Origin: Promethearchaeota archaeon | GTDB lineage: Archaea; Asgardarchaeota; Lokiarchaeia; Sigyniarchaeales; SOKP01 | Assembly (NCBI GenBank): GCA_048938445.1 | Contig: JBHLME010000090.1 | Span: forward strand, 1-18,399 | DNA: 18,399 nt | Direction: 5' to 3' | In this document: one piece after another, positions 2,385 to 17,756 of the stretch | How positions within the stretch are numbered: the first letter of the stretch is position 1 | Layout of the letters: the number at the start of each line of letters is the position of its first letter | Notes under the pieces: generated by a model | Seen by the model: only the letters and a program-made list of their open reading frames with translations | Databases searched by the model: none | What the model was told of the DNA's origin: nothing | Translations under genes and position numbers: made by a program

Positions 2385-3734
2385 TTAAGTAACATAATTA
2401 TTATTGCCTTCAACTGTGGACCCACTTAGATTAGAATAATCGTCATCATTAGAAAGCATTGTATTCCCATCCACTACATTCCCATCACAACTACTACTGG
2501 CGATTCTTAAACCATATCCAGTACTAGAACTTTGATGATAAGTAATCATATTACCCAATATAAAATTATAATCAGCAGCGCTTAATTCTACAATGATACC
2601 ATAGATAAGACTTGATGAACTAGTAACCCCTCTAATAGTATTACCTGAAATAGTTGAGTTATACCCTCTAATGACAATTCCAGCAATTGTATTTTGATAT
2701 AGCATGTTATTTGCAATAGTGCAATATTCCCCATTAAAATAAATTCCCCTATAACATGTTGCTATGTAATTCCCTTCACAGACAACCTGACAACCACTGT
2801 CGATGTGTATACCTTGTCCACCACTACCAGTATCACAATCGACAATTGTATTATCGATGATGTAAACTGAATGGGCACTAGTAGTCACATAAACACCATA
2901 ATACATCTTACTGATATAACAGTTAGATACCCATACATCAGGTTGAGTTATGTAAATTGCAGTACCAAAACTATCTGAATCACCTAAAATACGGACATTT
3001 TCAACTCGTACTGAACTGATTGAGACTTGAATAGCGTATGTAATTCCTGTAAGATCACTAGCATCTATTGTTAAATCTTTTAAAATGCATGATGAAATAG
3101 TTCCATATATATAAAAAGCCATATTATTCCCACCACAATCCACCGTAATATCCTGGGAAACACCTTGTATGACATAGTTTCCACCACCATCTACAGTAAT
3201 TTGCGAGGTAAGTATAATATCTTCAGTAATTATAATCGTTCCATCTCCTGTCCCAATATCAGTTAATGCACTATTTATTTCTGATTGCGAAGAGCAATAA
3301 TATTTATCTGGATCATTAAGCACATTTACAATGATTTCATCTTGGGTGGTATTACCTGATGCTACATCAGTTGCAATCACGGTTATATTCCACCATCCAT
3401 TTGCTACAGAGCCAGTATTCCATTGAAATGGTAGTGTTGCTCCGATTAATGAGCCATTCCTAAGAATAGATATAGTATATTGACTTGAACCTGCTACTAA
3501 AGCTCTTATTTCAACAGTGCCCGAAACAGTGTCGCCTTGGTCAGGATCTAAAATACCAACGACAATACCACCCCCTCCAGGAACGCCATCTTCTCCATCT
3601 TCTCCAGGAGCACCAGGAAGACCAGGAATGGGAGGTTGTAAAAAGACAGAATATGTCCCTAAACCTAAACCACCCATTCCTATTATCATGGTTATGATAA
3701 TAAGAGCTGAAGATGCTGAACTTCTATTTGACAT
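2385..3734 (-). CDS. Membrane-anchored or secreted protein: N-terminal TM, short collagen-like segment, Ig-like domain, right-handed parallel beta-helix (NosD/pectin-lyase-like)
   Basis: Hydrophobic N-terminus; GLPGAPGEDGEDGVPG; 'PDQGDTVSGTVEIRA...FQWNTGSVANGWWNITVIATD' (Ig-like); repeated 'GIY...TIANN/ISGNTI/ILGNMI/VDGNTM' PbH1-type coils. Confidence 0.82.
   Translation of the reverse strand: MSNRSSASSALIIITMIIGMGGLGLGTYSVFLQPPIPGLPGAPGEDGEDGVPGGGGIVVGILDPDQGDTVSGTVEIRALVAGSSQYTISILRNGSLIGATLPFQWNTGSVANGWWNITVIATDVASGNTTQDEIIVNVLNDPDKYYCSSQSEINSALTDIGTGDGTIIITEDIILTSQITVDGGGNYVIQGVSQDITVDCGGNNMAFYIYGTISSCILKDLTIDASDLTGITYAIQVSISSVRVENVRILGDSDSFGTAIYITQPDVWVSNCYISKMYYGVYVTTSAHSVYIIDNTIVDCDTGSGGQGIHIDSGCQVVCEGNYIATCYRGIYFNGEYCTIANNMLYQNTIAGIVIRGYNSTISGNTIRGVTSSSSLIYGIIVELSAADYNFILGNMITYHQSSSTGYGLRIASSSCDGNVVDGNTMLSNDDDYSNLSGSTVEGNNNYVT
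3576..3623 (-). repeat. Collagen-like Gly-X-Y repeat (5 triplets) in a locally GC-rich coding patch
   Basis: Encodes GLP GAP GED GED GVP G; includes the 9-nt tandem ccatcttct x2. Confidence 0.7.
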
Positions 3735-3954: not shown

Positions 3955-5097
3955 TTAAAAAAAAGGATATCGATTTCGTCTCCTTTCTTGGCTTTCAAGA
4001 GTTTTTTTCTTCAATTCTTTATCAATAAAACCTTCAATGTGGCATAAGTACTCATATTCATCTCTCAAGCACAAAGTTATCGCGACACCTTTTTTATTCA
4101 TTCGGGAGGTTCTCCCTATTCGATGAACATAATTCTCGGGATACTTAGGCACGTCATAATTAAAAATATGACTTATATTATCAATATCAAGACCTCTCGC
4201 TGCAACATCAGTTGCTATGAGCATGTTAACCCTTTTCTTTTTAAAGTCTTTTAAAACTTTTTCTCGTTTGAATTGAGATAAATCTCCTGAAATAAGACCC
4301 ACTCTATATTCATTGTCTTTTGAATTCAATTTATTTGCTAACCATGATGCAGTCTTCTTGGTATTCGTAAAAACTAAAGAGAATTTAGGTTTTTCCCTCC
4401 TTAAAATTTTTAAGAATGAGGGATATTTTTGTTCATATCTATCAATTAAATAATAGAATTGATGAGTGTTTCTTACTGTCAATTCATCTTTACTTAAATT
4501 TAAAAACTTGAATTGATTTTTTGAATACTTTTTTACCAAATTTCTAATATCAGGATCGAGCGTAGCCGAAAATAGCATGAATTGATAATTAGTTTTAATT
4601 TGGTGTAAAATATATTTGACATCTGGAGCAAAACCCATATCCCATAGACGATCGGCTTCGTCTAGAACAACATATCTTATATTTGATAAATTTAATTCTC
4701 TTCTTTTATAAAGATCAATAATCCTTCCGGGAGTTCCTACAATTATATTAATCCCCTTTTTTAAATAACTTATCTGGTTATTAATAGAAACGCCCCCATA
4801 TATTGGTATGGACTTTACTCCATTTCCCATGCTCTCAATAACTTCTTGAACTTGTTTTGCAAGCTCTCTTGTTGGTACCAAAATAAGAGCTTCATTATTT
4901 TTAAATTGTATTTTTTCGATTATGGGAAGAACAAACGCTAGTGTCTTGCCAGTACCGGTTTTAGATTGAACCATCATATGGTTTCCTTTTAGAATGAAGG
5001 GAATTGCTTTTTCTTGTACCGGTGTTGGTGTTATGATATCTTGTTTTGATAACTCGTTTATATACTTATCTTTAATACCTAATTCTTTAAAATTCAA
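3955..5097 (-). CDS. DEAD-box ATP-dependent RNA helicase (core only)
   Basis: Q motif (F...PTPVQ), motif I SKTGTGKT, Ia PTRELA, GG, Ib TPGR, II DEAD, III SAT, V TDVAARGLD, VI HRIGRTSR. TTG start. Confidence 0.97.
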   Translation of the reverse strand: MNFKELGIKDKYINELSKQDIITPTPVQEKAIPFILKGNHMMVQSKTGTGKTLAFVLPIIEKIQFKNNEALILVPTRELAKQVQEVIESMGNGVKSIPIYGGVSINNQISYLKKGINIIVGTPGRIIDLYKRRELNLSNIRYVVLDEADRLWDMGFAPDVKYILHQIKTNYQFMLFSATLDPDIRNLVKKYSKNQFKFLNLSKDELTVRNTHQFYYLIDRYEQKYPSFLKILRREKPKFSLVFTNTKKTASWLANKLNSKDNEYRVGLISGDLSQFKREKVLKDFKKKRVNMLIATDVAARGLDIDNISHIFNYDVPKYPENYVHRIGRTSRMNKKGVAITLCLRDEYEYLCHIEGFIDKELKKKTLESQERRRNRYPFF

Positions 5098-5197: not shown

Positions 5198-7393
5198 CTA
5201 TTTAAATACGACTTGTTCAACTAGAAGATTTATTTCTACTAATTTTTTATTGATAAGCATGCGTACTTTATCTGCATTAATCTGTGGATTATTATTAACG
5301 ATATCTCGCACGGCATCACGATATTTTTTTCCCAATTTTGAAAGCATTAAGTGGGATTCATTAGACTCGTTAAATTGTGGTATTGGAAATGAAAATGGTC
5401 TTTTATGTATATGCCGTGAGCTTTTAATCAATTTAATGCTATTGGAGAGAATTGGAGCATTCAATATAGCAGATAAATAGAATGCTTCATCTTTAGAATC
5501 AGTAGAATAATAATAATTTTCTGATGGAATAATAATAGTTTTTTTAAAATTCTTAATAACTGCCGATTTTAGACTTGAACCAGAAGCATTATAAATTACA
5601 ATAAAATTATTGTTTTTATTCTGTTTAGTTAATTTATTCCAATAATTCATGTTTGAAAATAAAGTATTAATCGAACTGGTCTGTTTTTTATTTTTTTGAT
5701 AAATTTCATCTAATTCTGAATAAAATTTCATTGCTTTAGGATATTGATTTAAATAATCCGTATCAAAAAGAAATGCTTCATTAATAGGTAGAAACACGCG
5801 TTTATATTTTTTCAAACAAAAGGGAACTAAATCCTTATTTAAAAATGATTTAAACTTAAATTCTCGTTCAATTTCTCTATTTTGGAATTCAAATTTCCAC
5901 TTATTTTTTGCTCTAGATAATATATCGGGATCTGAAGATAATAAATATGATGAATCATCATTTTTATCCATTTTAAAAAATATTAAAGTACGTGGGACTA
6001 ATGTTGCTCCTTGGTAAAATTTTGACTTATAAGAACTATAAGAAATTTTATGTAAAAGTTCCAATTGATGAACTGGTATTATGAGTTTTGCTCCTTCTTT
6101 TTCAATCTTCAAGCTAGAATAATGAGTTTCCTCAATTACTGATAAATTTTCATTAAAGATTTTTGTTTTGATAGGATATTTCTCATTTGGTGTCTTATGG
6201 TCTTCAATTCCAATATATTCTGCTTTTAAGCAAATATTTGGAATATTAAATATATTTGTTGAGGGAAAATCCCAAATTTCAAGATTATCGAATATTGAAA
6301 AAGCTCTAAATTTATAACAGTGATCTCCATTCAAAACGCTTTTAGTTATAATTAAAAAGATTTTTCCACCGAATTTTAAAAACTTGGTAACAGCATAAAA
6401 AAAAACTGCCGCAAGCTCGATATGAGTAATATAATGACTCATCGGTTTAATTTTAAACCTTTCTGCTAAATTCCGGATATCCTCTTGATATTTCTTGCTA
6501 TTCAAATCTTTATATGTTATCCACGGGGGATTTCCTATTATTAAATCAAAATAATCATATAAATTCGTGAGATTATATCTCATTTGGGACTCATATCGCT
6601 CGGGAAATAATGAATCAATGATATATATATTTACATTAGGAATTTGATCTTCACTAAAATCAAAATGTTCTAAAAATACCAAGAATATATTTATCTTAGC
6701 AGTGTAAGTGGCAAGGGGGTTGACATCAAAACCATAGACGTTATTAATGGCATCAAGCTTTTCTTCATTGCTTTTCTCTTTATTGTTGAGAATAGATATA
6801 ATGATATTAATCAAGAAATTACCCGATCCGCAAGAAGGATCCAAAATTTTCTTACCAAATTCATAAAAATCATTAACCATCTTTTCGACGAGATTAGAAG
6901 GCGTGTAAAATTCTCCAATTTTATGGCGAATATCTGCAAAAAACAACTCTTGATAAAAATTAATGAACAAGTCTTCTTGCATGAAGGACTTATTTTCAAT
7001 TTCATCATAGATCATTGAAAATAGTTTTTTTGAAAAATCAATCCAATAAAAAGTATCAAACTCAAAGATATAAAAGGCTTCTAAATTATTTGACCTAAAA
7101 TCCCTGTAAGCCTCAGCAAAATCGATGTTTTGAATTAGACTCAAACGAGTTATCAATAAAGATTTCAAAACTAAAGAGAAATAGGTATGTTTGAGAAATA
7201 ACTCAGAATCAAGAACTCCACCATAAATCTCTTTATAAAGCTTTTTCCATTTAGTGAAAGTGATTTCATATTCTTTCTTTCGAGATGATTGCGCACTTTT
7301 TGTAAAGAAATCCATACTATTTTTATAGATCTCAGAACTCAATCCAAATGTTATAGAAATGTCTTTTTTTCCTACCTTTTTATACTCAACCAT
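5198..7393 (-). CDS. Amino (N6-adenine/N4-cytosine) DNA methyltransferase, gamma-class order, N-6 DNA methylase/Eco57I-like, with C-terminal putative target-recognition region
   Basis: Motif X GEFYTP, motif I ILDPSCGSGNF, 'YGFDVNP', motif IV IIGNPPW, in X-I-IV order, followed by about 350 aa of TRD-like sequence ('FYLSAILNAP'). Confidence 0.92.
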   Translation of the reverse strand: MVEYKKVGKKDISITFGLSSEIYKNSMDFFTKSAQSSRKKEYEITFTKWKKLYKEIYGGVLDSELFLKHTYFSLVLKSLLITRLSLIQNIDFAEAYRDFRSNNLEAFYIFEFDTFYWIDFSKKLFSMIYDEIENKSFMQEDLFINFYQELFFADIRHKIGEFYTPSNLVEKMVNDFYEFGKKILDPSCGSGNFLINIIISILNNKEKSNEEKLDAINNVYGFDVNPLATYTAKINIFLVFLEHFDFSEDQIPNVNIYIIDSLFPERYESQMRYNLTNLYDYFDLIIGNPPWITYKDLNSKKYQEDIRNLAERFKIKPMSHYITHIELAAVFFYAVTKFLKFGGKIFLIITKSVLNGDHCYKFRAFSIFDNLEIWDFPSTNIFNIPNICLKAEYIGIEDHKTPNEKYPIKTKIFNENLSVIEETHYSSLKIEKEGAKLIIPVHQLELLHKISYSSYKSKFYQGATLVPRTLIFFKMDKNDDSSYLLSSDPDILSRAKNKWKFEFQNREIEREFKFKSFLNKDLVPFCLKKYKRVFLPINEAFLFDTDYLNQYPKAMKFYSELDEIYQKNKKQTSSINTLFSNMNYWNKLTKQNKNNNFIVIYNASGSSLKSAVIKNFKKTIIIPSENYYYSTDSKDEAFYLSAILNAPILSNSIKLIKSSRHIHKRPFSFPIPQFNESNESHLMLSKLGKKYRDAVRDIVNNNPQINADKVRMLINKKLVEINLLVEQVVFK

Positions 7394-8110: not shown

Positions 8111-10612
8111 TTATAATACATTCCAAGGTGTTCCAAATAGTATAAATGACGATAGTGTGGCACTTTGGTTATTTTCAATATTTTTTTTGGATAGATCTTC
8201 CGATATTGCTTTTAATAATGCAATACCCTGATTATTTTTACTCAATATATAATTATAAAAACCGGTGATAATTTTTCTTGATTCATTGGTAAATACTGGA
8301 AAGTTTCTAGCAATAATTCCTTTTATATGACTATAATCAAAATGAGAAAATAGTTCACCAAGTATTTTTGTAGTATTGTTTATTTTTACTCCCTCGTCGT
8401 CAAAGATTTGTGCATTAAAAAATAGTAATGGATAAATATCATACGAATTTTGATTGATTGCTTTTAAAATTTCTTCAATTTTTATAATATTTTTATCATT
8501 AGTAATGAAATAACTATCTTTAGGGCTTTTTTTAGAATAATATATATTTCCGATAAAATGTATGATGTGAAGTTTATTTTGAGATAAATGAGATAAAATT
8601 TTATCGCGAGTACAAGTGCTCTCTGTTAAAATAGTCATAGAATTAACTTTTTCTGAATTTCTAAAGACATTTACAATGTGATTTAGTTCATTTTTACCTT
8701 CTATGAAGGGATAAATTAATTCTTTAACTTGTTTTTTTTCATTCCACTTGGTAGGGTAATTATCATTTATTGCTCCTATGATTAATACATCATGAACATC
8801 CTCTAAACTCATCATTCCTCTTTCGAAAGAGACCCCTCCAATATTTACTTCTCCAATTCGATAAGATGTTGAATATTGAAATAAGAAAAAATTATTATAA
8901 TGAATGAATTCAAAAGGAATCGTCATTGTATTTAATATTATAAAAACTTGAGGTATTTCCCCTTCTTCCTTAATTTCAAACTGAGTTATTATGTTTCTAA
9001 TTAATTTAGGAAGTGATAAGTAATAGATCCTCCCAAATTCATTTAAATCTAAATCATATTTCTTTGGTTTCGCAAATGAGAAGATGTCATCATAAATATC
9101 AGCTATTTGAGTGTCATTCCAATATTCATTTTGGATTTTTCCTTCAAATTCTGTACCTTCAGTTGATTTTATCCTAAAAGAAATTAATCCCTTTGAATTT
9201 ATATATAATATTAGCTTAGATATTTTAAAATTTGGATCAATAGTATTCATTACATCATCATCAAACGAATATATTTGAGGTTTTAATGATTGAGACTCTT
9301 CATGTAATTGAGGGAGATTAGATAATGATGCTTGAAGATCATTATCCAAAAAAGAGATGATTTTTGTAGCAAGATTGAGATCATTTTCTTCGAAAAGTGC
9401 TCTGTAAAATAGCATTCTCCAAAAATCGACTGGTTCTAATGAGTAATATAATGATTTAAATTGCCATAGGTAATTACAGGTATGGAAAAAATGAAAAATT
9501 TGTTCATTTGTTCTTGGAACTTTAAGATGCGTGTTTAACTTGTTCAATGATTGAAGTAAATATTTTTTATCCTTAATATTGACGAATTTCTTACTAGCTT
9601 CAATCCAAAGTTCAATTAAAATATTACTATATCCTAAATCCGATTTTAATATGAAAAGATCTTCTATGAAGTCATATATGCTAAAAGCTACTTCAAATTG
9701 GCTCCTGTTAATTAGAAAATCTATATATGTTCTGATATAGTTTATCGCATCAGGGAATGATTGAAATTCATTAATTTTAGAATACATGTATCTAATTACC
9801 ATTATGATCCAAGAATGCTCTCCAATATTATGCAAGTAGTGAATTAATTCTTCCAATTCAGTTAAAATTGTTGGGAATGTTCTCTCATTAATTGAAACTC
9901 TAGTTAATTTACCAAATTCATTTTTCAAACTGCTTGGAAGGCGATTTACTAAAAGTTTACTCATGAGCTTTACAAATTCTTGACCTTCCATCAAATCGAA
10001 TCTGATACTAATATTTTCCAAAAAGATATTAATAAATAAAGGGCGTTTATCAGGTTTTAATTCTGAGACAATTTTACTCAAGTTCTCCATGCTAAATATG
10101 AATAAATTAGTTGGAAGAACAGATTTTCTCAAAAACATTAGCAATATCTGCAATTCTATTAAATCTAAATAATTTCCTCTATTATACACATGATTACAAA
10201 AAGAATTGATAAATCTAGTAATTCCCGTCTGAGAGAGATTTTCCATTTTAATAAAAGACTTTAAGAGATTCGTGAAAAAAATGGAAAAATGGTAAAAATC
10301 GTCTAATTTTGATAAAAATGTAAAAAAGCGGTTATAGGCATCTAAATATTTAATAGGATCGAACTTGACTCCACTTTCATCCTTTTTTGTTAAAGAGTTT
10401 ATATAGATATGCCAACTATTAACAATGATCATTATTAATTGGTTCTTTTTTTGGACGTCCATCCATTCAGTTTTTTCAATTTCGAAATACAAATCATTAA
10501 ATAGTTTATCCGCCCAGCTGTGATTTGAAGTTAATAAAAGCTTTCGCCCTTGTATTATTTTTTTTTGAAAATTTTCAATAAAATTTTTTTTAATATCTAA
10601 TATTTCTGTCAT
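8111..10612 (-). CDS. Large alpha-helical protein with C-terminal CHAT (caspase-like) domain, predicted catalytically inactive
   Basis: About 450 aa of helical N-terminal sequence. The C-terminal part has CHAT landmarks: 'LNEFGRIYYLSLP', 'IPFEFIH', 'VLIIGA', 'ELNHIVNVF', 'CTRDKILSHL...HIIHFIGN', 'LLFFNAQ', 'SFILFGTPW'. ATG at 10612 is preferred over the track's TTG at 10621. Confidence 0.75.
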   Translation of the reverse strand: MTEILDIKKNFIENFQKKIIQGRKLLLTSNHSWADKLFNDLYFEIEKTEWMDVQKKNQLIMIIVNSWHIYINSLTKKDESGVKFDPIKYLDAYNRFFTFLSKLDDFYHFSIFFTNLLKSFIKMENLSQTGITRFINSFCNHVYNRGNYLDLIELQILLMFLRKSVLPTNLFIFSMENLSKIVSELKPDKRPLFINIFLENISIRFDLMEGQEFVKLMSKLLVNRLPSSLKNEFGKLTRVSINERTFPTILTELEELIHYLHNIGEHSWIIMVIRYMYSKINEFQSFPDAINYIRTYIDFLINRSQFEVAFSIYDFIEDLFILKSDLGYSNILIELWIEASKKFVNIKDKKYLLQSLNKLNTHLKVPRTNEQIFHFFHTCNYLWQFKSLYYSLEPVDFWRMLFYRALFEENDLNLATKIISFLDNDLQASLSNLPQLHEESQSLKPQIYSFDDDVMNTIDPNFKISKLILYINSKGLISFRIKSTEGTEFEGKIQNEYWNDTQIADIYDDIFSFAKPKKYDLDLNEFGRIYYLSLPKLIRNIITQFEIKEEGEIPQVFIILNTMTIPFEFIHYNNFFLFQYSTSYRIGEVNIGGVSFERGMMSLEDVHDVLIIGAINDNYPTKWNEKKQVKELIYPFIEGKNELNHIVNVFRNSEKVNSMTILTESTCTRDKILSHLSQNKLHIIHFIGNIYYSKKSPKDSYFITNDKNIIKIEEILKAINQNSYDIYPLLFFNAQIFDDEGVKINNTTKILGELFSHFDYSHIKGIIARNFPVFTNESRKIITGFYNYILSKNNQGIALLKAISEDLSKKNIENNQSATLSSFILFGTPWNVL

Positions 10613-10632
10613 GATAATCAACTTTTTCTATT

Positions 10633-11829
10633 TTATTCAACTCTATTTGGTTCAATATTAGTCATGCTAGGAGGTCTAGGCGTGGGATTATCGATCCACC
10701 CCTTTTGGAGCTGATTCTTTAGATATAAAATGGATGTTCCAATCCAACTCATGTGTTCCCTTCCCGATAAAGCAATCACGTTAATTTTTTCATTAATTTT
10801 ATCTGGAAAGAACTTATTCAGTTCATTTTTTAATCTATCTTTTAATCCAGGGATTAAACTTCCTCCTCCAGAGAGGATAATATTTGAAATGAGTTCTTCC
10901 CAATTTTCCCTATCCCATGATCTGATAATATTTGAAATAGCTTCTGCTAAACTAAAATAATCAATATGAATGAGTTTTGGATCAAATAAGGGTTCAGATA
11001 ACATGAATCTTTCAAAATTAATTTTTAAAGCGCTCCCATCTGGTAAGACAAACTCTTTATCATATTTATTAACACCTTCTTTTATTCTTTTTTTTTCCGC
11101 TTCCACGTTAAAAACACATAAAGAGGTTTCTTCTTTAATATCTTTGGCAATAAGATTATCAACATAATTTTTTTTACCACTTTCTTTTTGAGTAACACAC
11201 AAATTAAGTAAGTGCTTTGTTAATTCTTTCCCTGCTATAGGAAAGATATCTCGAGACATGATTTTATTGAATCCATGTAAGAAGGAATTAATGTATGTTC
11301 GAGATTCCCCCATGTTAACCACTATAGCACTGATTTTTTGGAGGGGTGCCATGATTGCTTGACTTTCAGATATGAATAGAAGTTTAGGAAAATTTAATTT
11401 TTCAAAAAAAATTTGTTGCAATTTTGATTTTTCTAGGTCTGTCATCAAGAAGGGGGCAATAATAATGATAGGTTGCATGTAGCGATATTCTTGTGCGATC
11501 TCTAACTTTTCATAGTAATGTTGAAAAAATTTCAATAAAATATTATAATTATTTTCTTTTTTAAATTCATGAATTTTTAATATATGTTTATAATCCAAAG
11601 CCTCTTGTCCAAATAAATTTTTTTCTACTCTTTCTTCACTTATAAAAATATCTTCTAAACCATCAATAATATCTGATGTAAATAAATAATCAGAGGCCTC
11701 AACATATACACTTGGAGTAATAATGACGGGATAATCATCTCCCGCAAAACCTAAGCGAAAGGTGTTGCTTCCAATATCTAATATCAATGGCCTTAAAGGA
11801 TCATTCTTTAACTCTTCTGCTGATGACAT
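10633..11829 (-). CDS. Divergent actin-family / actin-related protein (Asgard ARP-like)
   Basis: Phosphate-1 LILDIGSNTFRLGFAGDDYP, 'QIFFEKLNFPKL', phosphate-2 IVVNMGESRT, 'IAGKELTKHL', 'KDIKE', 'FVLPDG...ERF..SEPLFDP', adenosine NIILSGGGSLIPGLKDRLKNEL, 'SWIGTSIL'. Collinear with eukaryotic actin rather than MreB. Confidence 0.95.
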   Translation of the reverse strand: MSSAEELKNDPLRPLILDIGSNTFRLGFAGDDYPVIITPSVYVEASDYLFTSDIIDGLEDIFISEERVEKNLFGQEALDYKHILKIHEFKKENNYNILLKFFQHYYEKLEIAQEYRYMQPIIIIAPFLMTDLEKSKLQQIFFEKLNFPKLLFISESQAIMAPLQKISAIVVNMGESRTYINSFLHGFNKIMSRDIFPIAGKELTKHLLNLCVTQKESGKKNYVDNLIAKDIKEETSLCVFNVEAEKKRIKEGVNKYDKEFVLPDGSALKINFERFMLSEPLFDPKLIHIDYFSLAEAISNIIRSWDRENWEELISNIILSGGGSLIPGLKDRLKNELNKFFPDKINEKINVIALSGREHMSWIGTSILYLKNQLQKGWIDNPTPRPPSMTNIEPNRVE

Positions 11830-11895
11830 GATTAATATAAATTCTTAATTTAAATTCAAAAATAAATAATTATGGAGGTAATTCTCATTCAAAAT

Positions 11896-12822
11896 TCATA
11901 GACTGTGTATGTATTCATCCACATTTCTTTTAAATTGATATTCTTTTACCTGTAATTCAAGCATTCCCAGAACTTTTTTAAATTGATGTGATAGATTATC
12001 AATATCCACTTCAGCTATTTTCTCTACCTCACTTCGTTTAATAGCAAATTCATTTAAACTACTACGAATCTTCTCATAAGCATTATTAATGGATGAAACC
12101 AGATCTTCCGTATTTTTCTTGGTTACTTTTCTCATTTGTCTTAAAATGGATAATATGCTTGAAATTGATTCTTCCCACCTATTATATTTAGTATTATAAC
12201 CTTCAATTAATTCCTTGAAAAAATCCTCTAATTTTGGATAAATGCTTTCTTTTTTTACAAATGAAGGTTCTTTCTCAACAGAAGTACTTTCAACATCTTC
12301 TGGAGCTTGAGTCGTCTCAGAAGTGTCTGGTGCTCCAGGAATTCCAATCTTCTGAGGATGAGAGGGAGGAGCTTCATCTTTTGGCTTTTTTGGTAATGAA
12401 CTATCTATAAGATGTGTCCTTTGTTTTATTTCCTCTCTTGTTAACTTTCGCTCTGTTAAAGGTACATCTTCCATTAAAAAGTCTTCAACAATTTGTGTTT
12501 CCTTGCTATCGTAAACTAATTGTGGTTTGATTTTTTGTTCTTCCTTCACTTCACGACGATAAAATCCTTCACCAGAAGAAACATGGGATAATAATCCTTG
12601 TAAATCCACCTGAGTCTCTTTTGCACCTTCTAAAGCAGAATCCATTGCTTCTGCATCTTTCTTATGGGCTGCTAATGCAGCATCCAAAGATGCTATTGGC
12701 ATTGTTGCTGTAGTTGGTTGGGGAGTTGTATTAATTGACGGCTCCTCAAGTGATTCTTTTTCTTCTTTATCCTCTTTCTTTTTCTTCTCTTTCTTTTTCT
12801 TTTTTGCCATGAGAATTTCCAT
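11896..12822 (-). CDS. Hypothetical protein: poly-Lys N-terminus, disordered middle, C-terminal coiled coil
   Basis: MAKKKKKEKKKKEDKEEKE; P/E/T/S-rich centre; last ~110 aa are amphipathic helices. Start may be the ATG at 12810. Confidence 0.8.
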   Translation of the reverse strand: MEILMAKKKKKEKKKKEDKEEKESLEEPSINTTPQPTTATMPIASLDAALAAHKKDAEAMDSALEGAKETQVDLQGLLSHVSSGEGFYRREVKEEQKIKPQLVYDSKETQIVEDFLMEDVPLTERKLTREEIKQRTHLIDSSLPKKPKDEAPPSHPQKIGIPGAPDTSETTQAPEDVESTSVEKEPSFVKKESIYPKLEDFFKELIEGYNTKYNRWEESISSILSILRQMRKVTKKNTEDLVSSINNAYEKIRSSLNEFAIKRSEVEKIAEVDIDNLSHQFKKVLGMLELQVKEYQFKRNVDEYIHSL

Positions 12823-12966
12823 TAATTAATTATTTTCTTTATTATCATTATAACTTTTTAAAATCTAATATGTTAGTAACACGATGAATTTATAAATTTT
12901 TTTCAATATAAACGAGCTTTTCATGTGTTTATCATTTGTATTATTGAATATCATGTGATTATAGTT

Positions 12967-13374
12967 TTAGTCTAAAGGAACTATTTCTACTTTCAATGCT
13001 TCGCCTTCTGTTAAAAGCATTTCCTCTAGATCTTCTATATTTCTATCACTTGGTAGAGGTCCAATTACTTCCCACATTGCGGTCTTTTCTCTCTCTAAAG
13101 AGATTGATGTTCCATAAATAAGGGAAATATTTTTTTCTGCAAAAATATTAGCAATCTTAGCTAACGCACCGGGTATATCTTTCATGGTTATTCGAAACTT
13201 GACAGGATTAGCTTCCTGTGATATTCCAACAGGGCTTATCTTAATTTCTTTTGTCTCTGAATCTGCAATCATCATTAATTGAGAGTTGGTTGTTAGTCCT
13301 AAACTTTTTCGAATGATTTGAGGGATTACTATTCGACCTCTATTATCAATTGTTAAAATTCTTACTTCCTTCAT
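12967..13374 (-). CDS. AbrB/MazE/SpoVT-family DNA-binding domain fused to an ACT domain (ligand-responsive transcription regulator)
   Basis: 'LTIDNRGRIVIPQIIRKSLGL' is the AbrB swapped-hairpin signature; 'FRITMKDIPGALAKIANIFAEKNISL' is the ACT signature. Confidence 0.9.
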   Translation of the reverse strand: MKEVRILTIDNRGRIVIPQIIRKSLGLTTNSQLMMIADSETKEIKISPVGISQEANPVKFRITMKDIPGALAKIANIFAEKNISLIYGTSISLEREKTAMWEVIGPLPSDRNIEDLEEMLLTEGEALKVEIVPLD

Positions 13375-13550
13375 GAAAAACTTCTCTTGAATTTGTTTTA
13401 TTACATTTAATATTAGAACTGTAAAATATAAATATTACTGGAACAGATACAGAAATAGTATTTTTAATACATCTTTTTTCTAAAAAGATAGCCTAATTGG
13501 CTTTGAAACTATCTGAACCCTCAAATATCTTTTTTATTTACTTGTTTATA

Positions 13551-13886
13551 CTAATACTGAGATGGAGTTAATTCTACTTTAGCACTGGGTTCTAATATGA
13601 CGCATAACACGTGTTCCCTTCCTGCTTGGGTTATGATAATCTTACTTTCTTTTCCTTCAATCACTACCTGTTGCAGTGAACCAATTGAACACTCATCCAT
13701 AAATCTTTCAGCCATGGAATGAATTGCTGCTAACATTGGACTTATTAATGAATCATCAATATTTTGAGGAAATTTTGAAGATATTGGAACACCTTTTTTC
13801 GAAAGAATGAAGGATCCTTTAACATCTGAATTCGTTAGTCTAAGTTTATCTAATAAAATATTATAAGAATCTGAATTTTTTTCCAA
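13551..13886 (-). CDS. Roadblock/LC7 domain protein, short form lacking the C-terminal helix
   Basis: 'DVKGSFILSKKGVPISS', 'ISPMLAAIHSMAERFMDECSIGSLQQVVIEGKESKIIITQAGREHVLCVI'; the protein ends shortly after the last strand. TTG start. Confidence 0.9.
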   Translation of the reverse strand: MEKNSDSYNILLDKLRLTNSDVKGSFILSKKGVPISSKFPQNIDDSLISPMLAAIHSMAERFMDECSIGSLQQVVIEGKESKIIITQAGREHVLCVILEPSAKVELTPSQY

Positions 13887-14057
13887 GTTTTTACACGATT
13901 TTTCTTTTTATAGTTAATATGTATAGTTTCTTAGTATTTAAAGCGTATAGTCCTGATTAATTCTTAACAAAATTGGATAAAATTATTAATTAAAAAAGTA
14001 AAAATAAAAGAATAGGAACTTATAGATTTATAATTTTTTTTTATCGAATAAGCTAAT

Positions 14058-16265
14058 CTATGCTCTATGTGCCTTTAGTTTAACGGTTAAATCGCGAGCT
14101 CGTTTTGAATACCATACTAACAAGTCTCCAGCATTTTCTGGCTTGTAATACTCACCACCACACAATGCTGCTGCTTTATTCATCAGATTATCATCAGGAT
14201 TTCCTAATCCAATGACATATATTACAACATTAGGATTCTCAGAAAACCTGCGGATCTCGTTGAAGAAGGCATCTCCATCGGTGGGGACACCATCAGTTAG
14301 CAAGACTATCATTGTTGGTTGATCTTTTGACATCTTATCAAACTCATTTAACACTTGATGTGCTGCTACCATTGCTTGTCCCATGTTAGTAGCTTGACCA
14401 TAAGCATTTCCAATTCGATCAACAATGACCCTAGCAGCATCTTCAAGAACTCCTTTCTTACCCGATGCGGAGTCCATGTAATAACTACCTCCAAAAGGTA
14501 ATACTTGTGCTTCATCAGCAAATCTTATTACACTTACTTTTTCTCCAAAACCCCTTCCTACTTTTTCACTCAAGAATAAAACAGCTGCAAAAGCCGCAGA
14601 AATTCTACGAGGTATGTTGACCCCATCTTTAAAATGAACCAAAAATTCTTGAATTTCTCTTGATTCCATTGCTGCTTTAATTCCTTCAATGGCAGGAGCT
14701 ATATTCGTGACTAATACATCTCGTGCCATCATTGAACGACTTATATCGATTATAAGAATGGCATTGAAAGGGATTAATCCTACAGGTGCCAATGATAAAG
14801 TCGTATTAGAGGTTATTTGAGCTAATATATCACCAGTCAAATCAGGAACACATTGGATAATCGAGCATGCTACATTGGCTTGAGCCCATCTTAACTTAAT
14901 ACCTTTAAATATGATATAATTTGATAACCAGATTTTTAAAGGTTCTACATTTGTTCGAACCATGCTGATTATTTGCCACATGTTCTCTCCAGAAATGGGC
15001 GCGATTCCCAATGAAACGCTTTGTAAGGGTATTATTTGCCGTTGATTTTTAGTTACCGTTACTTCAAAACTGCCTATACCTGATGCTTCAAGTATTTCAC
15101 TATCGATATAAATTGCATTGTCGGGCACGTTTTCGACTATCTGAACTTTACCCGCGCCTACAGCTCCTGTAAGTTCATCTGAAAATGCAATTACATCATT
15201 GGATTGGATTGAAAGGGTGTGTTGGATTCTTGGACTTACTTGACAGAATCCCATTAAATTTGGCTGTGAATGCACCTCTAGCATTATCTGAGATGTTTTA
15301 TGAATTGGTGGTTCGGTTGAATATACAACTATCTGATTTGATTGTATGTTTGTATCTTCTTTCGTATCCAAGCTCATCCTAATCTGTGAAGGATTTATGG
15401 TTATTACATCAATTCTAGCTGAACCAACGGATCTTGAAACTGGATCCTCCCAAGCTATCAACATTCCTTGACCTAATCCCAATGATTGTACAAGATTTGG
15501 ACTGAGTTGTACTCTTCCTCCTTGTAATGTTGAATCAACTACAACGGAGAGAATTATACCATTTTTTTGAGATTGTAGCATGTTAATGTCTATGGCATTA
15601 GCATACGTTGCTGCGGGCGCTGCTCGTTGAGCAGGTGGAGGGCCATATGCTCCAGGAGTTGGTTGGGATGGTGTATATTGTGATGGTGGTTGAGGCATGG
15701 GACTAAGTTGAGATGGAGGAGTATATTGTGGTTGTGGTGTTGGTTGTGGCGGTGGAGGAGAATATTGTGTTTGAGGTGTTGGTTGTGGTGGAGGAGGAAA
15801 ATATTGAGGTTGAGGTGTTGGTTGTGGTGGAGGTGGTGAAATTTGAGGTTCCGGAATTGAGGTGGGCATTGTTTTTGCAGAAGGGGCAGCTAAACGCGCT
15901 CCTGGTTGCACAGGTGCGGGAATGGGAATAGGTTCCTTGACAGGTTTAGTCTGAGGTAGTTTTGATGTAGGTTTCTTTTTTTTACCTTTACTAGGCGTCT
16001 TTACTTTACCACTTGATGGTCTAATCGTTAATTCTACCCCATCAAATTTTACTTTATCGAGAATATCTTTTGAAAATCGTCCCGCAAAATCTAGTATTTG
16101 ATCTGAAATGTTTATTTTTGCTGAAGTAACCATGAGATTGTCATCATTCACTACATCAACCATTCCACCGTTTTGTACGCCTAATTTTTTTGCATTTTCT
16201 TCACAAATTACTAAAGTACCTGAACTTTTTTCATCTATATCTACAAAAATTTTAATTTCTGTCAT
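14058..16265 (-). CDS. Multidomain protein: CDC48-N-like double-psi barrels, Pro/Gln-rich linker, CDC48 domain-2-like region, C-terminal vWA domain
   Basis: vWA MIDAS 'ILIIDISRSM', 'ATNMGQAM', 'IVLLTDGVP', 'IYVIGLG', 'AALCGGEYY'. Three units resemble CDC48-N: 'AKKLGVQNGGMVDV', 'VQSLGLGQGMLIAW', 'QHTLSIQSNDVIAF'. No Walker A. ATG at 16265 is preferred over TTG at 16274. The vWA call is firm; the CDC48-N call is moderate. Confidence 0.8.
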   Translation of the reverse strand: MTEIKIFVDIDEKSSGTLVICEENAKKLGVQNGGMVDVVNDDNLMVTSAKINISDQILDFAGRFSKDILDKVKFDGVELTIRPSSGKVKTPSKGKKKKPTSKLPQTKPVKEPIPIPAPVQPGARLAAPSAKTMPTSIPEPQISPPPPQPTPQPQYFPPPPQPTPQTQYSPPPPQPTPQPQYTPPSQLSPMPQPPSQYTPSQPTPGAYGPPPAQRAAPAATYANAIDINMLQSQKNGIILSVVVDSTLQGGRVQLSPNLVQSLGLGQGMLIAWEDPVSRSVGSARIDVITINPSQIRMSLDTKEDTNIQSNQIVVYSTEPPIHKTSQIMLEVHSQPNLMGFCQVSPRIQHTLSIQSNDVIAFSDELTGAVGAGKVQIVENVPDNAIYIDSEILEASGIGSFEVTVTKNQRQIIPLQSVSLGIAPISGENMWQIISMVRTNVEPLKIWLSNYIIFKGIKLRWAQANVACSIIQCVPDLTGDILAQITSNTTLSLAPVGLIPFNAILIIDISRSMMARDVLVTNIAPAIEGIKAAMESREIQEFLVHFKDGVNIPRRISAAFAAVLFLSEKVGRGFGEKVSVIRFADEAQVLPFGGSYYMDSASGKKGVLEDAARVIVDRIGNAYGQATNMGQAMVAAHQVLNEFDKMSKDQPTMIVLLTDGVPTDGDAFFNEIRRFSENPNVVIYVIGLGNPDDNLMNKAAALCGGEYYKPENAGDLLVWYSKRARDLTVKLKAHRA
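15708..15848 (-). repeat. Imperfect 39-bp (13-aa) coding tandem repeat, 3 full copies plus a partial one
   Basis: PQISPPPPQPTPQ (15810-15848), PQYFPPPPQPTPQ (15771-15809), TQYSPPPPQPTPQ (15732-15770), PQYTPPSQ (15708-15731). Confidence 0.88.
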
Positions 16266-16334
16266 TATTATCAAATACTTTTTTCTTGATTAGAAATTAC
16301 CATGAATTTTAAAATATAAATTTCTGAGTATGGA

Positions 16335-16724
16335 TTAAGGAACGGGATATCTTTTTCCAATCTCACCAGCATAATAACGGAATACAGTTACTACCTTTCC
16401 CAAATCTTCAAGCTTCCTACATGCTCCCATCAAGAAAAATCGTCCTGCTGAGCTTAAAATAATGAAAGCATCACTTCCCCTTAATACTACTTCAAGCATC
16501 TGATGATAACCTAATGATGAGACTGCCTCTGAAGCACTCTGTAGCACTACAGCGCTCATGCTTGAAAATAAGTCTGCATTGACTTCATAAGTAGGAATAG
16601 AAGAAAAGGCTAATTTTAGACCTTCACGGGTTATTAACGCAAGAGCTTCCAATTCAGTGTGTTCAGTAATATTTCCTAAAAAATTTGATAAGCTCAATGC
16701 TTCTTCGGGTGTTAAATCGCTCAT
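16335..16724 (-). CDS. Roadblock/LC7 (MglB/LAMTOR2-like) domain protein, full-length form
   Basis: 'LEALALITREGLKLAFS', 'LFSSMSAVVLQSASEAVSSLGYHQMLEVVLRGSDAFIILSSAG', and C-terminal helix 'DLGKVVTVFRYYAGEIGKRY'. Confidence 0.88.
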   Translation of the reverse strand: MSDLTPEEALSLSNFLGNITEHTELEALALITREGLKLAFSSIPTYEVNADLFSSMSAVVLQSASEAVSSLGYHQMLEVVLRGSDAFIILSSAGRFFLMGACRKLEDLGKVVTVFRYYAGEIGKRYPVP

Positions 16725-16940: not shown

Positions 16941-17756
16941 TTACCCAAGTTGCTTCTTGATCTGGTTTTGGAGGATGTCTTTTTTCGATTTTGGCTCATA
17001 TTCTCCTCCAGCGCGACGTAAAAACTCAATTGCCAGAATTTTTCCGTTTTCAGATAGTATTCGTGGAGAATAATCTTCGGCAAAGAATACTCCTTCAGGT
17101 ATAGATCCTACTTTCTCAATGACCTTTTCAACTTGTTTTTTACCTAGAAAATTTTGGACTTTTTCTACGATTGAATAAGCATGATTCCCAATAATGATTA
17201 ATTCACGTTCATAGCCAGGTGGTATTTGTATTTCTTCGAGTTTTTGCATTATTTGTTCAAAATTTACCTGTTGCTCCTCTTGCATGAATTGACTCATAGA
17301 TCCTGCACCAGTATATAATGGTCCGGCATTATCTTTAACACGATCTCGACTACCTGCGATATTCATGCCTTCTGCGGGTTTAGGAGGTTCAAAAATTGCT
17401 TTTTGACGTAGTGGATTGACTGCTGCACCTGCGCCTGGATCTTCTTTTATTTCTTTAGCGATACCGGCCTCTGTTTTACCTCCCATTATTCTTATTAATT
17501 CTGAATCCTCGTCTCCTTCATCAACCGAGACAGATCCATAATGCAGTCCTACTTGACCTCGAATATCTTGGCTTCGTTTAGCACCAACAAACTTAGATCT
17601 TACATTACTTTGACTTCCAAGCCATAAAAAGATTTTTCTTATATCATCAGCTACGATAACATACACTTCTTCTGATTTCATGATGTCCTTTATCGGGCCA
17701 TCTGCTGTCAGTTCCGTTGTAGTTCCGTCGGGATTTACCTTGAAAATTTGGGGCAT
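16941..17756 (-). CDS. Single gelsolin/villin-like domain + linker + unknown C-terminal domain (1DGelX-like architecture)
   Basis: 'IFKV...MKSEEVYVIV...KIFLWLGSQSNVRSKFVGAKRSQDI...VDEGDEDSELIRIMG' matches the gelsolin repeat (W-x-G-x-x-S, EGxE). A second globular region begins near 'FEQIMQKLEEIQIPPGYERELIIIGN'. Confidence 0.88.
   Translation of the reverse strand: MPQIFKVNPDGTTTELTADGPIKDIMKSEEVYVIVADDIRKIFLWLGSQSNVRSKFVGAKRSQDIRGQVGLHYGSVSVDEGDEDSELIRIMGGKTEAGIAKEIKEDPGAGAAVNPLRQKAIFEPPKPAEGMNIAGSRDRVKDNAGPLYTGAGSMSQFMQEEQQVNFEQIMQKLEEIQIPPGYERELIIIGNHAYSIVEKVQNFLGKKQVEKVIEKVGSIPEGVFFAEDYSPRILSENGKILAIEFLRRAGGEYEPKSKKDILQNQIKKQLG

Follow-up and report, generated by a model that had tools for sequence, protein, structure and literature searches.

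An ATPase-less protein with a CDC48-type N-domain and an intact von Willebrand factor A domain in a Promethearchaeota archaeon

What does a CDC48-type N-domain do on a protein that carries no ATPase? The question is raised by a gene at 14058..16265, on the reverse strand of an 18,399-bp contig (JBHLME010000090.1) of a Promethearchaeota archaeon. The window analysed here is this entire contig; the genome has a size of 4.6 Mb in 256 contigs and a G + C content of about 30%. The encoded protein, 735 amino acids (aa) in length, consists of a barrel unit, a Pro-rich linker, a second barrel, a complete N-domain (double-psi beta-barrel, DPBB, followed by a beta-clam) and a von Willebrand factor A (vWA) domain with an intact MIDAS (metal ion-dependent adhesion site). 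It has no ATPase. N-domains are known from ATPases (CDC48, NSF, PEX1), in which they form the front end that binds partners; here they are tripled on a motor-less vWA protein. Both folds are well known; the ATPase-less fusion, the tripling and the gene partners are undescribed in the searched literature. Judged from sequence and by analogy, the gene product is tentatively considered a cytoplasmic, non-catalytic bridging adaptor, the conserved partners of which would be a ligase/hydrolase gene set (U-G-A), with Roadblock and gelsolin-domain partners added in the archaeal order of the window.

Layout of the protein

The gene has its start codon, ATG, at 16265 and its stop codon at 14058-14060. 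The open reading frame (ORF) itself is open from 14058 to 16274 (reverse strand), beginning with TTG at 16274; the start is assigned to the ATG, where homologues begin M-[TS]-E-I-K. Residue numbers are counted from the TTG throughout, and 3 is to be subtracted for numbering from the ATG. Present in one copy only in the genome. Identical over all 735 aa to database record P0002. An extracellular adhesin is ruled out by the lack of a signal peptide or membrane segment; the most hydrophobic 19-mer of the protein is the buried first strand of the vWA domain. A scan for bacterial-type promoters and terminators gives 37 promoter-like sites against 37.4 expected, a count that carries no information for an archaeon.

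From the N-terminus, the protein comprises unit N1 (aa 4-88, 16011..16265), a Pro/Gln-rich linker (aa 89-224, 15603..16010), unit U2 (aa 228-329, 15288..15593), unit U3 (aa 330-418, 15021..15287), segment M (aa 419-498, 14781..15020) and the vWA domain (aa 499-738, 14061..14780), all on the reverse strand. The linker is 136 aa long and contains 34% Pro. It includes a 39-nucleotide (nt) tandem repeat in 3.5 copies at 15715-15850, which encodes a 13-aa PPPPQPTPQPQY-type repeat, and differs in length and sequence across aligned homologues.

A first-pass annotation of the window, made from the letters alone, had described three similar units, one before and two after the linker, followed by a segment resembling CDC48 domain 2. 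All of this is borne out. In profile-profile comparison with hhalign (family profiles of N1 aa 1-92, U2 aa 228-329, U3 aa 330-418), N1 matches U2 with a probability of 96.5% and an expectation value (E) of 9e-10, N1 matches U3 with 98.3% and E 2e-14, and U2 matches U3 with 99.0% and E 4e-18. The similarity of U2 and U3 is visible already by plain self-BLAST (E 1e-5). The AlphaFold2 model of aa 225-500, built with 33 sequences, has a mean predicted local distance difference test score (pLDDT) of 91.3 and a predicted template modelling score (pTM) of 0.77. Its Foldseek matches, among those listed (top 50 of 338, E ≤ 0.001), are all N-domain-bearing AAA+ ATPase entries: Pex1/Pex6, p97/CDC48, SPATA5, NSF, MSMEG_0858. 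Template modelling (TM) scores normalised to the isolated p97 N-domain are 0.70-0.75. A structure search independent of Foldseek returns CDC48A-N (15.9; 2.5; 160), PEX1-N (15.8), NSF-N (14.8), Sec18-N (14.7), VAT-N (12.9) and UFD1 (12.2). These N-domain alignments span model residues ~103-276, which correspond to U3 and the 80 aa that follow it. This makes U3 the double-psi barrel (Nn half) and aa 419-498 the beta-clam (Nc half, CDC48_2-like) of a complete N-domain, in which the beta-clam, as C-terminal lobe, is packed on the barrel, the N-terminal lobe. U2 is modelled as a stand-alone double-psi-like barrel without a beta-clam. Of the three units that the first-pass annotation expected to model as double-psi barrels, U2 and U3 do so with AlphaFold2 and Foldseek. 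N1 is a probable barrel by homology to U2 and U3 and by a weak Pfam match of its aa 20-54 to Molydop_binding, a DPBB family (E 0.0095).

The N-domain is remote from known ones in sequence. No match to Pfam CDC48_N (PF02359, cut-off 35.1 bits) is found in the window protein at E ≤ 0.01, and the protein is absent from the five PF02359 matches of its genome. Among distant paralogues, one reaches 35.7 bits (L119) and others 28-33 bits; weak PF02359 matches occur in 9 of 33 U3 units. A separate 196-aa ORF of the same genome (contig C196:3701-3958) matches CDC48_N with 67.9 bits and is a free N-domain without an ATPase.

The vWA domain exceeds the Pfam cut-offs of PF00092 (38.5 against 23.8 bits) and PF13519 (35.6 against 27 bits). 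Its MIDAS, noted as intact in the first-pass annotation, consists of D510-x-S512-x-S514 (DISRS, 14733-14747), T629 (14388-14390) and D661 (14292-14294); Pfam and the residue check agree with that call. These residues are invariant or at least 90% conserved in alignments A2 and A8, the exceptions being two degenerate orthologues of genus g18. In 23 aligned homologues the vWA core is nearly invariant, with long runs free of any change, and the surface of the domain, too, is conserved to an extreme degree. A helical segment particular to this subfamily is inserted after strand 1 (aa 520-575), and a GRGFGEK motif is nearly invariant. A model of aa 330-738 (N-domain plus vWA domain) has a pLDDT of 88.5. 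The protein is more conserved than most neighbouring gene products and is under strong purifying selection. As first proposed, Walker motifs are lacking: neither [AG]x4GK[ST] nor GK[ST] is found by pattern search for Walker A, and no AAA family by Pfam. The D1/D2 modules with Walker A/B of type II AAA+ proteins are absent; the protein ends after the vWA domain.

Distribution and the ligase/hydrolase gene set

The family is widespread in Asgard archaea. A word-seeded search gives 442 relatives. The best 120 of the 442 are 75-100% identical over aa 225-738, and the named ones among these 120 are all called just "VWA domain-containing protein". Record titles of close relatives are Promethearchaeota, Lokiarchaeota and other Asgard archaea. 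An exhaustive search of 1.8 billion cluster representatives with aa 225-500 gives 32 clusters in all, the distant ones being proteins of 420-500 aa with one N-domain and a vWA domain. In one subgroup of relatives an N-terminal ubiquitin-like (YukD-type) domain replaces the extra barrels; one such record is named Thermoplasmatota. The metagenome scan gives no relative with query P0139 and three with alignment A11. Record P0122 (932 aa, with an unrelated C-terminal half, possibly a fusion or chimaera) was left out. A 12-fold repeat protein among the representative matches, P0136, was discarded on reading as unrelated low-complexity sequence. The first-pass annotation had held that a wide distribution with a known unrelated function would speak against its reading; the distribution is wide, and no known unrelated function is attached to the architecture. 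Full-text literature searches give no paper treating this family, which the supplements of the Asgard COG (clusters of orthologous genes) papers may list under an asCOG number. The Protein Atlas, searched with the two-domain core and with vWA families excluded, gives no usable match.

Within the phylum, the vWA family is found in 244 of 400 genomes (~60%). The long form, in which the match includes U2, is restricted among the matches listed to families f1-f7, which make up the class of the window (f1 is the family of the window itself). In other classes the matches listed cover U3 and M only, in ORFs of ~440-490 aa (short form). In genus g18 the orthologues (L103:8784-11051, L104:8906-11212) show 24-30% identity, where sister genera have 46-57%; their DxSxS reads DxTxS, and the region of the MIDAS threonine has changed as well. 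Both still adjoin gelsolin-domain and Roadblock genes. Beside two short-form vWA paralogues lie divergently oriented genes for Gtr1/RagA-like GTPases of 408 aa (L105:4097-5320, L112:7626-8849), and a Ras-family GTPase gene (374 aa, L121:4760-5881) lies two genes from another paralogue.

The most recurrent neighbours outside f1 belong to a set of three genes. U encodes a protein of ~400-600 aa with no known domain, G a YbdK-like, ATP-dependent carboxylate-amine ligase, and A a ~500-aa protein of the amidohydrolase superfamily. G matches PDB entries 1r8g and 1tt4 with E ~1e-10, its NCBIfam matches being below cut-offs; A matches Pfam Amidohydro_2, and LigW-type decarboxylases in PDB at E 0.0015. 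A forms one orthologous family across loci and G another (phmmer E 1e-29 to 1e-180). The YbdK/GCS2 carboxylate-amine ligase superfamily also includes PafA. A and/or G are found near the vWA gene, within the examined stretch, in 17 of 28 loci outside f1. Gene order is vWA-U-G-A in long-form loci of f5-f7, A-vWA-G or A-G-vWA in short-form loci of f16, f20 and f21, and A-vWA in f31 loci, with G ~6 kb away in L111; a divergent A-G-U order also occurs among non-f1 loci. In three f3 loci U-G-A lies within 2 kb of a gelsolin-Roadblock-vWA triad. In both informative metagenome loci of the ubiquitin-like-fused relatives a member of this ligase family is encoded directly downstream (E 1e-58 to 1e-87), there fused into a protein of ~1,250 aa. 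In the genome of the window, U (597 aa), G (565 aa) and A (514 aa) occur together on another contig, C241, at 9088-14248 (locus L114).

Presence and absence agree as well. The ligase is found in 250 of 400 genomes, and in all 30 listed families its presence or absence coincides with that of the vWA protein: both occur in f1-f8, f16, f18, f20, f21 and f30, and both are absent from 17 families (103 genomes). Both are lacking in genus g6 (0/2 each; genomes 96% complete). In genus g18, where the vWA orthologue is diverged and its MIDAS changed, the ligase is not found (0/3).

Two observations concern the surroundings of these genes. On C241 the set is flanked by genes of isoprenoid metabolism (3-hydroxy-3-methylglutaryl-coenzyme A synthase and reductase, prenyltransferase) and by a 1292-aa multi-PAS histidine kinase gene. 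In f31 the A-vWA pair adjoins a gene for a ~870-900-aa protein (L108:11907-14522, L109:5364-8012, L116:8840-11458), the N-terminal ~390 aa of which are a paralogue of A (E 1e-9 to 1e-16).

Neighbouring genes and possible roles

In the window the vWA gene follows a Roadblock/LC7 gene (129 aa, 16335..16724, reverse strand, 69 nt upstream; Pfam Robl_LC7 E 5.4e-6, profile against PDB Roadblock proteins E 5e-5) and a gelsolin-domain gene (271 aa, 16941..17756, reverse strand). The latter encodes one gelsolin domain and a conserved C-terminal domain of unknown type; its profile (A10) matches the Lokiarchaeota gelsolin 2DGel 7whg_G in PDB at E 6.6e-11, and its Atlas cluster is 'putative Gelsolin-like' (0.94). 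The C-terminal domain (~aa 165-250) has the motifs IPxGFERELIIIGNHAYS and PEGxFFAEDYSPR, with no Pfam or PDB sequence match; the protein may represent the class of Asgard gelsolins called 'gelsolin plus domain X'. A second Roadblock/LC7 gene (111 aa, 13551..13886, reverse strand; Pfam E 1.3e-14) stands between the vWA gene and the AbrB-ACT gene. It is a lineage-specific insertion, found in 2 of 80 related loci and adjoining the vWA gene only in L002.

The 80 related species-level loci have a fixed order on one strand: gelsolin, Roadblock, vWA, AbrB-ACT, coiled-coil/Pro-rich, divergent actin-family, CHAT-domain, PLD-like, methyltransferase-like, DEAD helicase. Among loci with enough flank, Roadblock and gelsolin-domain genes lie directly upstream on the same strand in 66/66, and the AbrB-ACT gene is present in 60/63, the actin-family gene in 54/56 and the CHAT-domain gene in 50/51. 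In sister family f3 only the gelsolin-Roadblock-vWA triad is kept (5/5 informative loci), with Roadblock on the opposite strand in L094. No similarity is found between the 285-aa upstream protein of L101 and the gelsolin-family profile, or between the 146-aa upstream protein of L097 and the Roadblock profile. Complex prediction with the full protein and the upstream Roadblock protein scores 0.00, which is no answer either way. The cytoskeleton link of the first-pass annotation is plausible from these gene neighbours alone, and as lineage-specific clients or regulators of the vWA protein the Roadblock and gelsolin-domain proteins would be the likeliest candidates.

The other genes of the window are as follows. 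The divergent actin-family gene (10633-11829, reverse strand, 398 aa) matches Pfam Actin at E 5e-49 and PDB at best at E 1e-38, eukaryotic actins at ~1e-35; this is far less actin-like than what we assume for conserved Asgard actins. It stands in a fixed array with the coiled-coil/Pro-rich gene (11896-12822) and the 836-aa CHAT-domain gene (8111-10621). A 731-aa N6-adenine methyltransferase-like protein is encoded at 5198-7393 (reverse strand; PADLOC type IIG restriction endonuclease-methyltransferase, E 1e-41) and in 47 of the 80 related loci. Its place and strand are nearly constant, unusually stable for a restriction-modification-like gene. A DEAD-box helicase gene (3955-5097, reverse strand) is present in 20 of the 80. 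The gene at 2385-3734 (reverse strand) encodes 449 aa that include a hydrophobic segment at the N-terminus, a G-x-P/G-E-D stretch resembling collagen and I/V-x-G-N-rich short repeats, for which a beta-helix is suggested by eye; it has no Pfam match and is not found in the 80 related loci. No PADLOC match (E ≤ 0.001) is obtained for the vWA, Roadblock, gelsolin-domain, U, G, A, CHAT or PLD-like proteins.

As a bridging adaptor, the vWA protein would act as follows. The N-domain-type modules would hold a protein or peptide partner, as N-domains of the CDC48, PEX1, NSF and UFD1 types hold adaptors, ubiquitin-like folds or short motifs. The vWA domain would use the metal ion of its MIDAS face to dock on a second partner at an acidic residue, and in this way the protein would carry a substrate or regulator to the ligase/hydrolase pair.

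Several points weigh against this adaptor role. In f1 no locus (0/80) has the U-G-A set less than 10 kb from the vWA gene, and in the ten genomes with both matches on one contig the distance is 13-106 kb; the link is therefore one of history, not of present adjacency. It looks as if, in f1, insertion of the block that starts with AbrB-ACT and contains the actin-family and CHAT genes had separated the vWA gene from U-G-A. Neither A nor G is found in 11 of the 28 non-f1 loci (L098, L099, L103-L107, L112, L113, L115, L121), two of which are short contigs. The ligase is present in 13 of 20 listed vWA-negative f1 genomes, including G238 (99% complete) and G209 (97% complete). Related genomes are not independent, so that the agreement across families overstates the evidence. 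In all 6 loci checked, f3 among them, a housekeeping gene, Nnr (NAD(P)HX repair), stands upstream of the triad, so that the Roadblock/gelsolin adjacency may in part reflect inherited order and not functional coupling.

A stronger version of the adaptor role is speculative and quite doubtful: the vWA protein as substrate or tag receptor of an as yet undescribed, reversible Asgard protein-modification system, in which G would write a mark and A erase it, aimed in Lokiarchaeia at Roadblock, gelsolin and actin, with the N-domain and vWA domain as a prokaryotic forerunner of the N-terminal domain (NTD) and SABA domain of DEPDC5/Iml1. Full-text literature search gives no paper tying YbdK-type ligases to Asgard archaea. 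The tight evolutionary coupling to the ligase/hydrolase set would be a sign of biochemistry yet to be explored in the archaea most closely related to eukaryotes.

The best surviving alternative, itself rather unlikely, is a GATOR1-like scaffold. The N-domain and vWA domain would be the archaeal counterpart of NTD-SABA; the vWA domain would bind the neighbouring Roadblock/longin-type protein, and the complex would regulate a Rag-/Ras-like GTPase, the gelsolin-domain protein and the Pro-rich linker possibly coupling it to actin dynamics. Entries containing DEPDC5/Iml1 head the Foldseek list of the two-domain model (aa 330-738), at ranks 1-4, 6-8, 11 and 12, with E 4e-13 to 2e-10 over ~420 columns and a root-mean-square deviation (rmsd) of 8-9.5 Å; p97 N-D1 is next in the list, with an rmsd of 16-21 Å. 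Examples are 9o5e_H (E 4.3e-13, 421 columns, rmsd 8.1 Å), 9xzy 'DEPDC5 dimer' (E 2.9e-12) and the SEA complex 8adl_W (E 2.7e-11). Chain identity in entries other than 9xzy is deduced from chain length and from matching over the same residues, 3-167. According to the available text of PMC8534245, the NTD of DEPDC5 resembles the N-domain of Sec18/NSF and SABA resembles Sec23; in that of PMC9646525, Sea1 binds Npr2 via SABA. Longin subunits related to NPRL2 are reported from Asgard archaea in the accessible part of bioRxiv 10.1101/2020.10.19.343400, and neither that part nor the accessible part of PMC12290439 names a DEPDC5 counterpart. The gene context agrees in part: the conserved Roadblock gene 69 nt upstream, in 3 of 28 loci a GTPase gene beside a short-form relative (L105 and L112, Gtr1/RagA-like; L121, Ras-like), and a weak Longin match of the upstream neighbour of the L097 orthologue (E 0.0035).

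Other results argue against the scaffold. Pfam IML1 (PF12257) has no match genome-wide and none in 33 family members, both at E ≤ 10. An rmsd of 8-9 Å means that the mutual orientation of the domains is not reproduced, and what is shared with the NTD-SABA arrangement is no more than the order of the folds. The archaeal protein has none of the SHEN, DEP and C-terminal domains of DEPDC5; it stops 240 aa from the beginning of the vWA domain, with no DEP match. No GTPase gene is found in the window or in the annotated upstream flanks of six related loci. Both Gtr1-adjacent loci come from a single genus, of which a third genome has no GTPase there.

The first-pass annotation had preferred a stand-alone adaptor handing substrates to an AAA+ machine encoded elsewhere, either CDC48/VAT or MoxR, with the vWA domain serving as in MoxR-vWA pairs. 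This is now unlikely. The N-domain fold is that of AAA+ N-domains, and the genome has four CDC48-like ORFs (741-768 aa) and five AAA_3 (MoxR-type) matches, the latter on contigs C147, C11, C198, C208 and C209 and the CDC48-like genes likewise on contigs other than the window. MIDAS vWA proteins commonly partner MoxR ATPases. The genes of MoxR-vWA pairs are normally adjacent, yet no MoxR (AAA_3) gene adjoins the vWA gene in the window or in annotated distant loci. No AAA+ gene at all stands beside it in the window, 22 distant Asgard loci, six upstream flanks or two metagenome loci; in the annotated parts of ~110 loci none is found, the comparison of the 80 close loci being confined to the proteins of the window, which include no AAA+. 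In CDC48-type enzymes, moreover, the N-domain is the part that receives adaptors, no handle for docking onto another ATPase, and the fusion alone therefore predicts no AAA partner.

A role of the vWA protein in maturation, in which it would help to assemble or activate the metal centre of A, as is the case with vWA proteins of other metalloenzymes, and not deliver substrates, is improbable. The tightest recurrent adjacency is indeed that of A, which in L108-L111 and L116-L119 directly adjoins the vWA gene; the superfamily of A is one of metal-dependent hydrolases, and the MIDAS is intact. Known vWA maturation factors act with a MoxR ATPase, however, and none is nearby. Three N-domain-type modules, the Pro-rich linker and the ubiquitin-like fusion are left unexplained, and in long-form loci U and G separate the vWA gene from A. 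A phosphorylation-controlled switch, like Sulfolobus ArnB with ArnA, is very improbable: the window has no FHA, zinc-ribbon ArnA-like or kinase gene by Pfam, and ArnB, in the available text of PMC12852372, has a beta-sandwich and a C-terminal helical domain, whereas here the vWA domain is last and N-domain modules stand ahead of it.

Comparison with known systems

The bridging adaptor proposed here resembles several known systems in part. With the Pup ligase/depupylase system (PafA/Dop) it shares a ligase of the YbdK/GCS2 kind, G, paired with a hydrolase; it differs in that no Pup-like gene is identified, A is not a PafA paralogue and no proteasomal ATPase is linked. Other intracellular MIDAS vWA proteins are TFIIH p44/Ssl1, Rpn10, Sulfolobus ArnB and Bacteroides BatB. 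None of these has CDC48-N-type modules, and the GRGFGEK motif and the insertion at aa 520-575 set this subfamily apart from canonical intracellular MIDAS vWA domains. Sec23/Sec24 of coat protein complex II (COPII) combine zinc finger, trunk, beta-barrel, helical and gelsolin domains in one chain. Here the zinc finger, beta-barrel and helical domain of that chain are absent, the gelsolin domain is on a separate protein, and the MIDAS is intact.

Compared with the N-domains of AAA+ proteins (CDC48/p97/VAT, NSF/Sec18, PEX1/PEX6) and UFD1, the sequence identity is just 8-16%. No D1/D2 ATPase follows the N-domain here, and N1 and U2, two of the three barrels, are without a beta-clam.

DEPDC5/Iml1 (Sea1), scaffold subunit of the nutrient-sensing complex GATOR1/SEACIT, is the only known protein found in which the folds come in this order: first an NTD resembling NSF/CDC48-N, then a SABA domain resembling the Sec23 trunk (vWA-like). 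It works with longin/Roadblock-type partners, according to the available text of PMC9646525, and here a Roadblock gene is adjacent. Relative to DEPDC5/Iml1, the present protein adds two barrels and the Pro-rich linker and has an intact MIDAS; its deeper genomic link is to a ligase/hydrolase set without a GATOR1 counterpart. By the structural models, DEPDC5/Iml1 would be the closest known architecture and not a family to which the protein belongs. If the resemblance is not one of descent, the vWA protein is still a clean test case for the role of a free-standing N-domain. If it is, the protein would add the missing scaffold to the archaeal prehistory of Rag-GTPase/TOR signalling.

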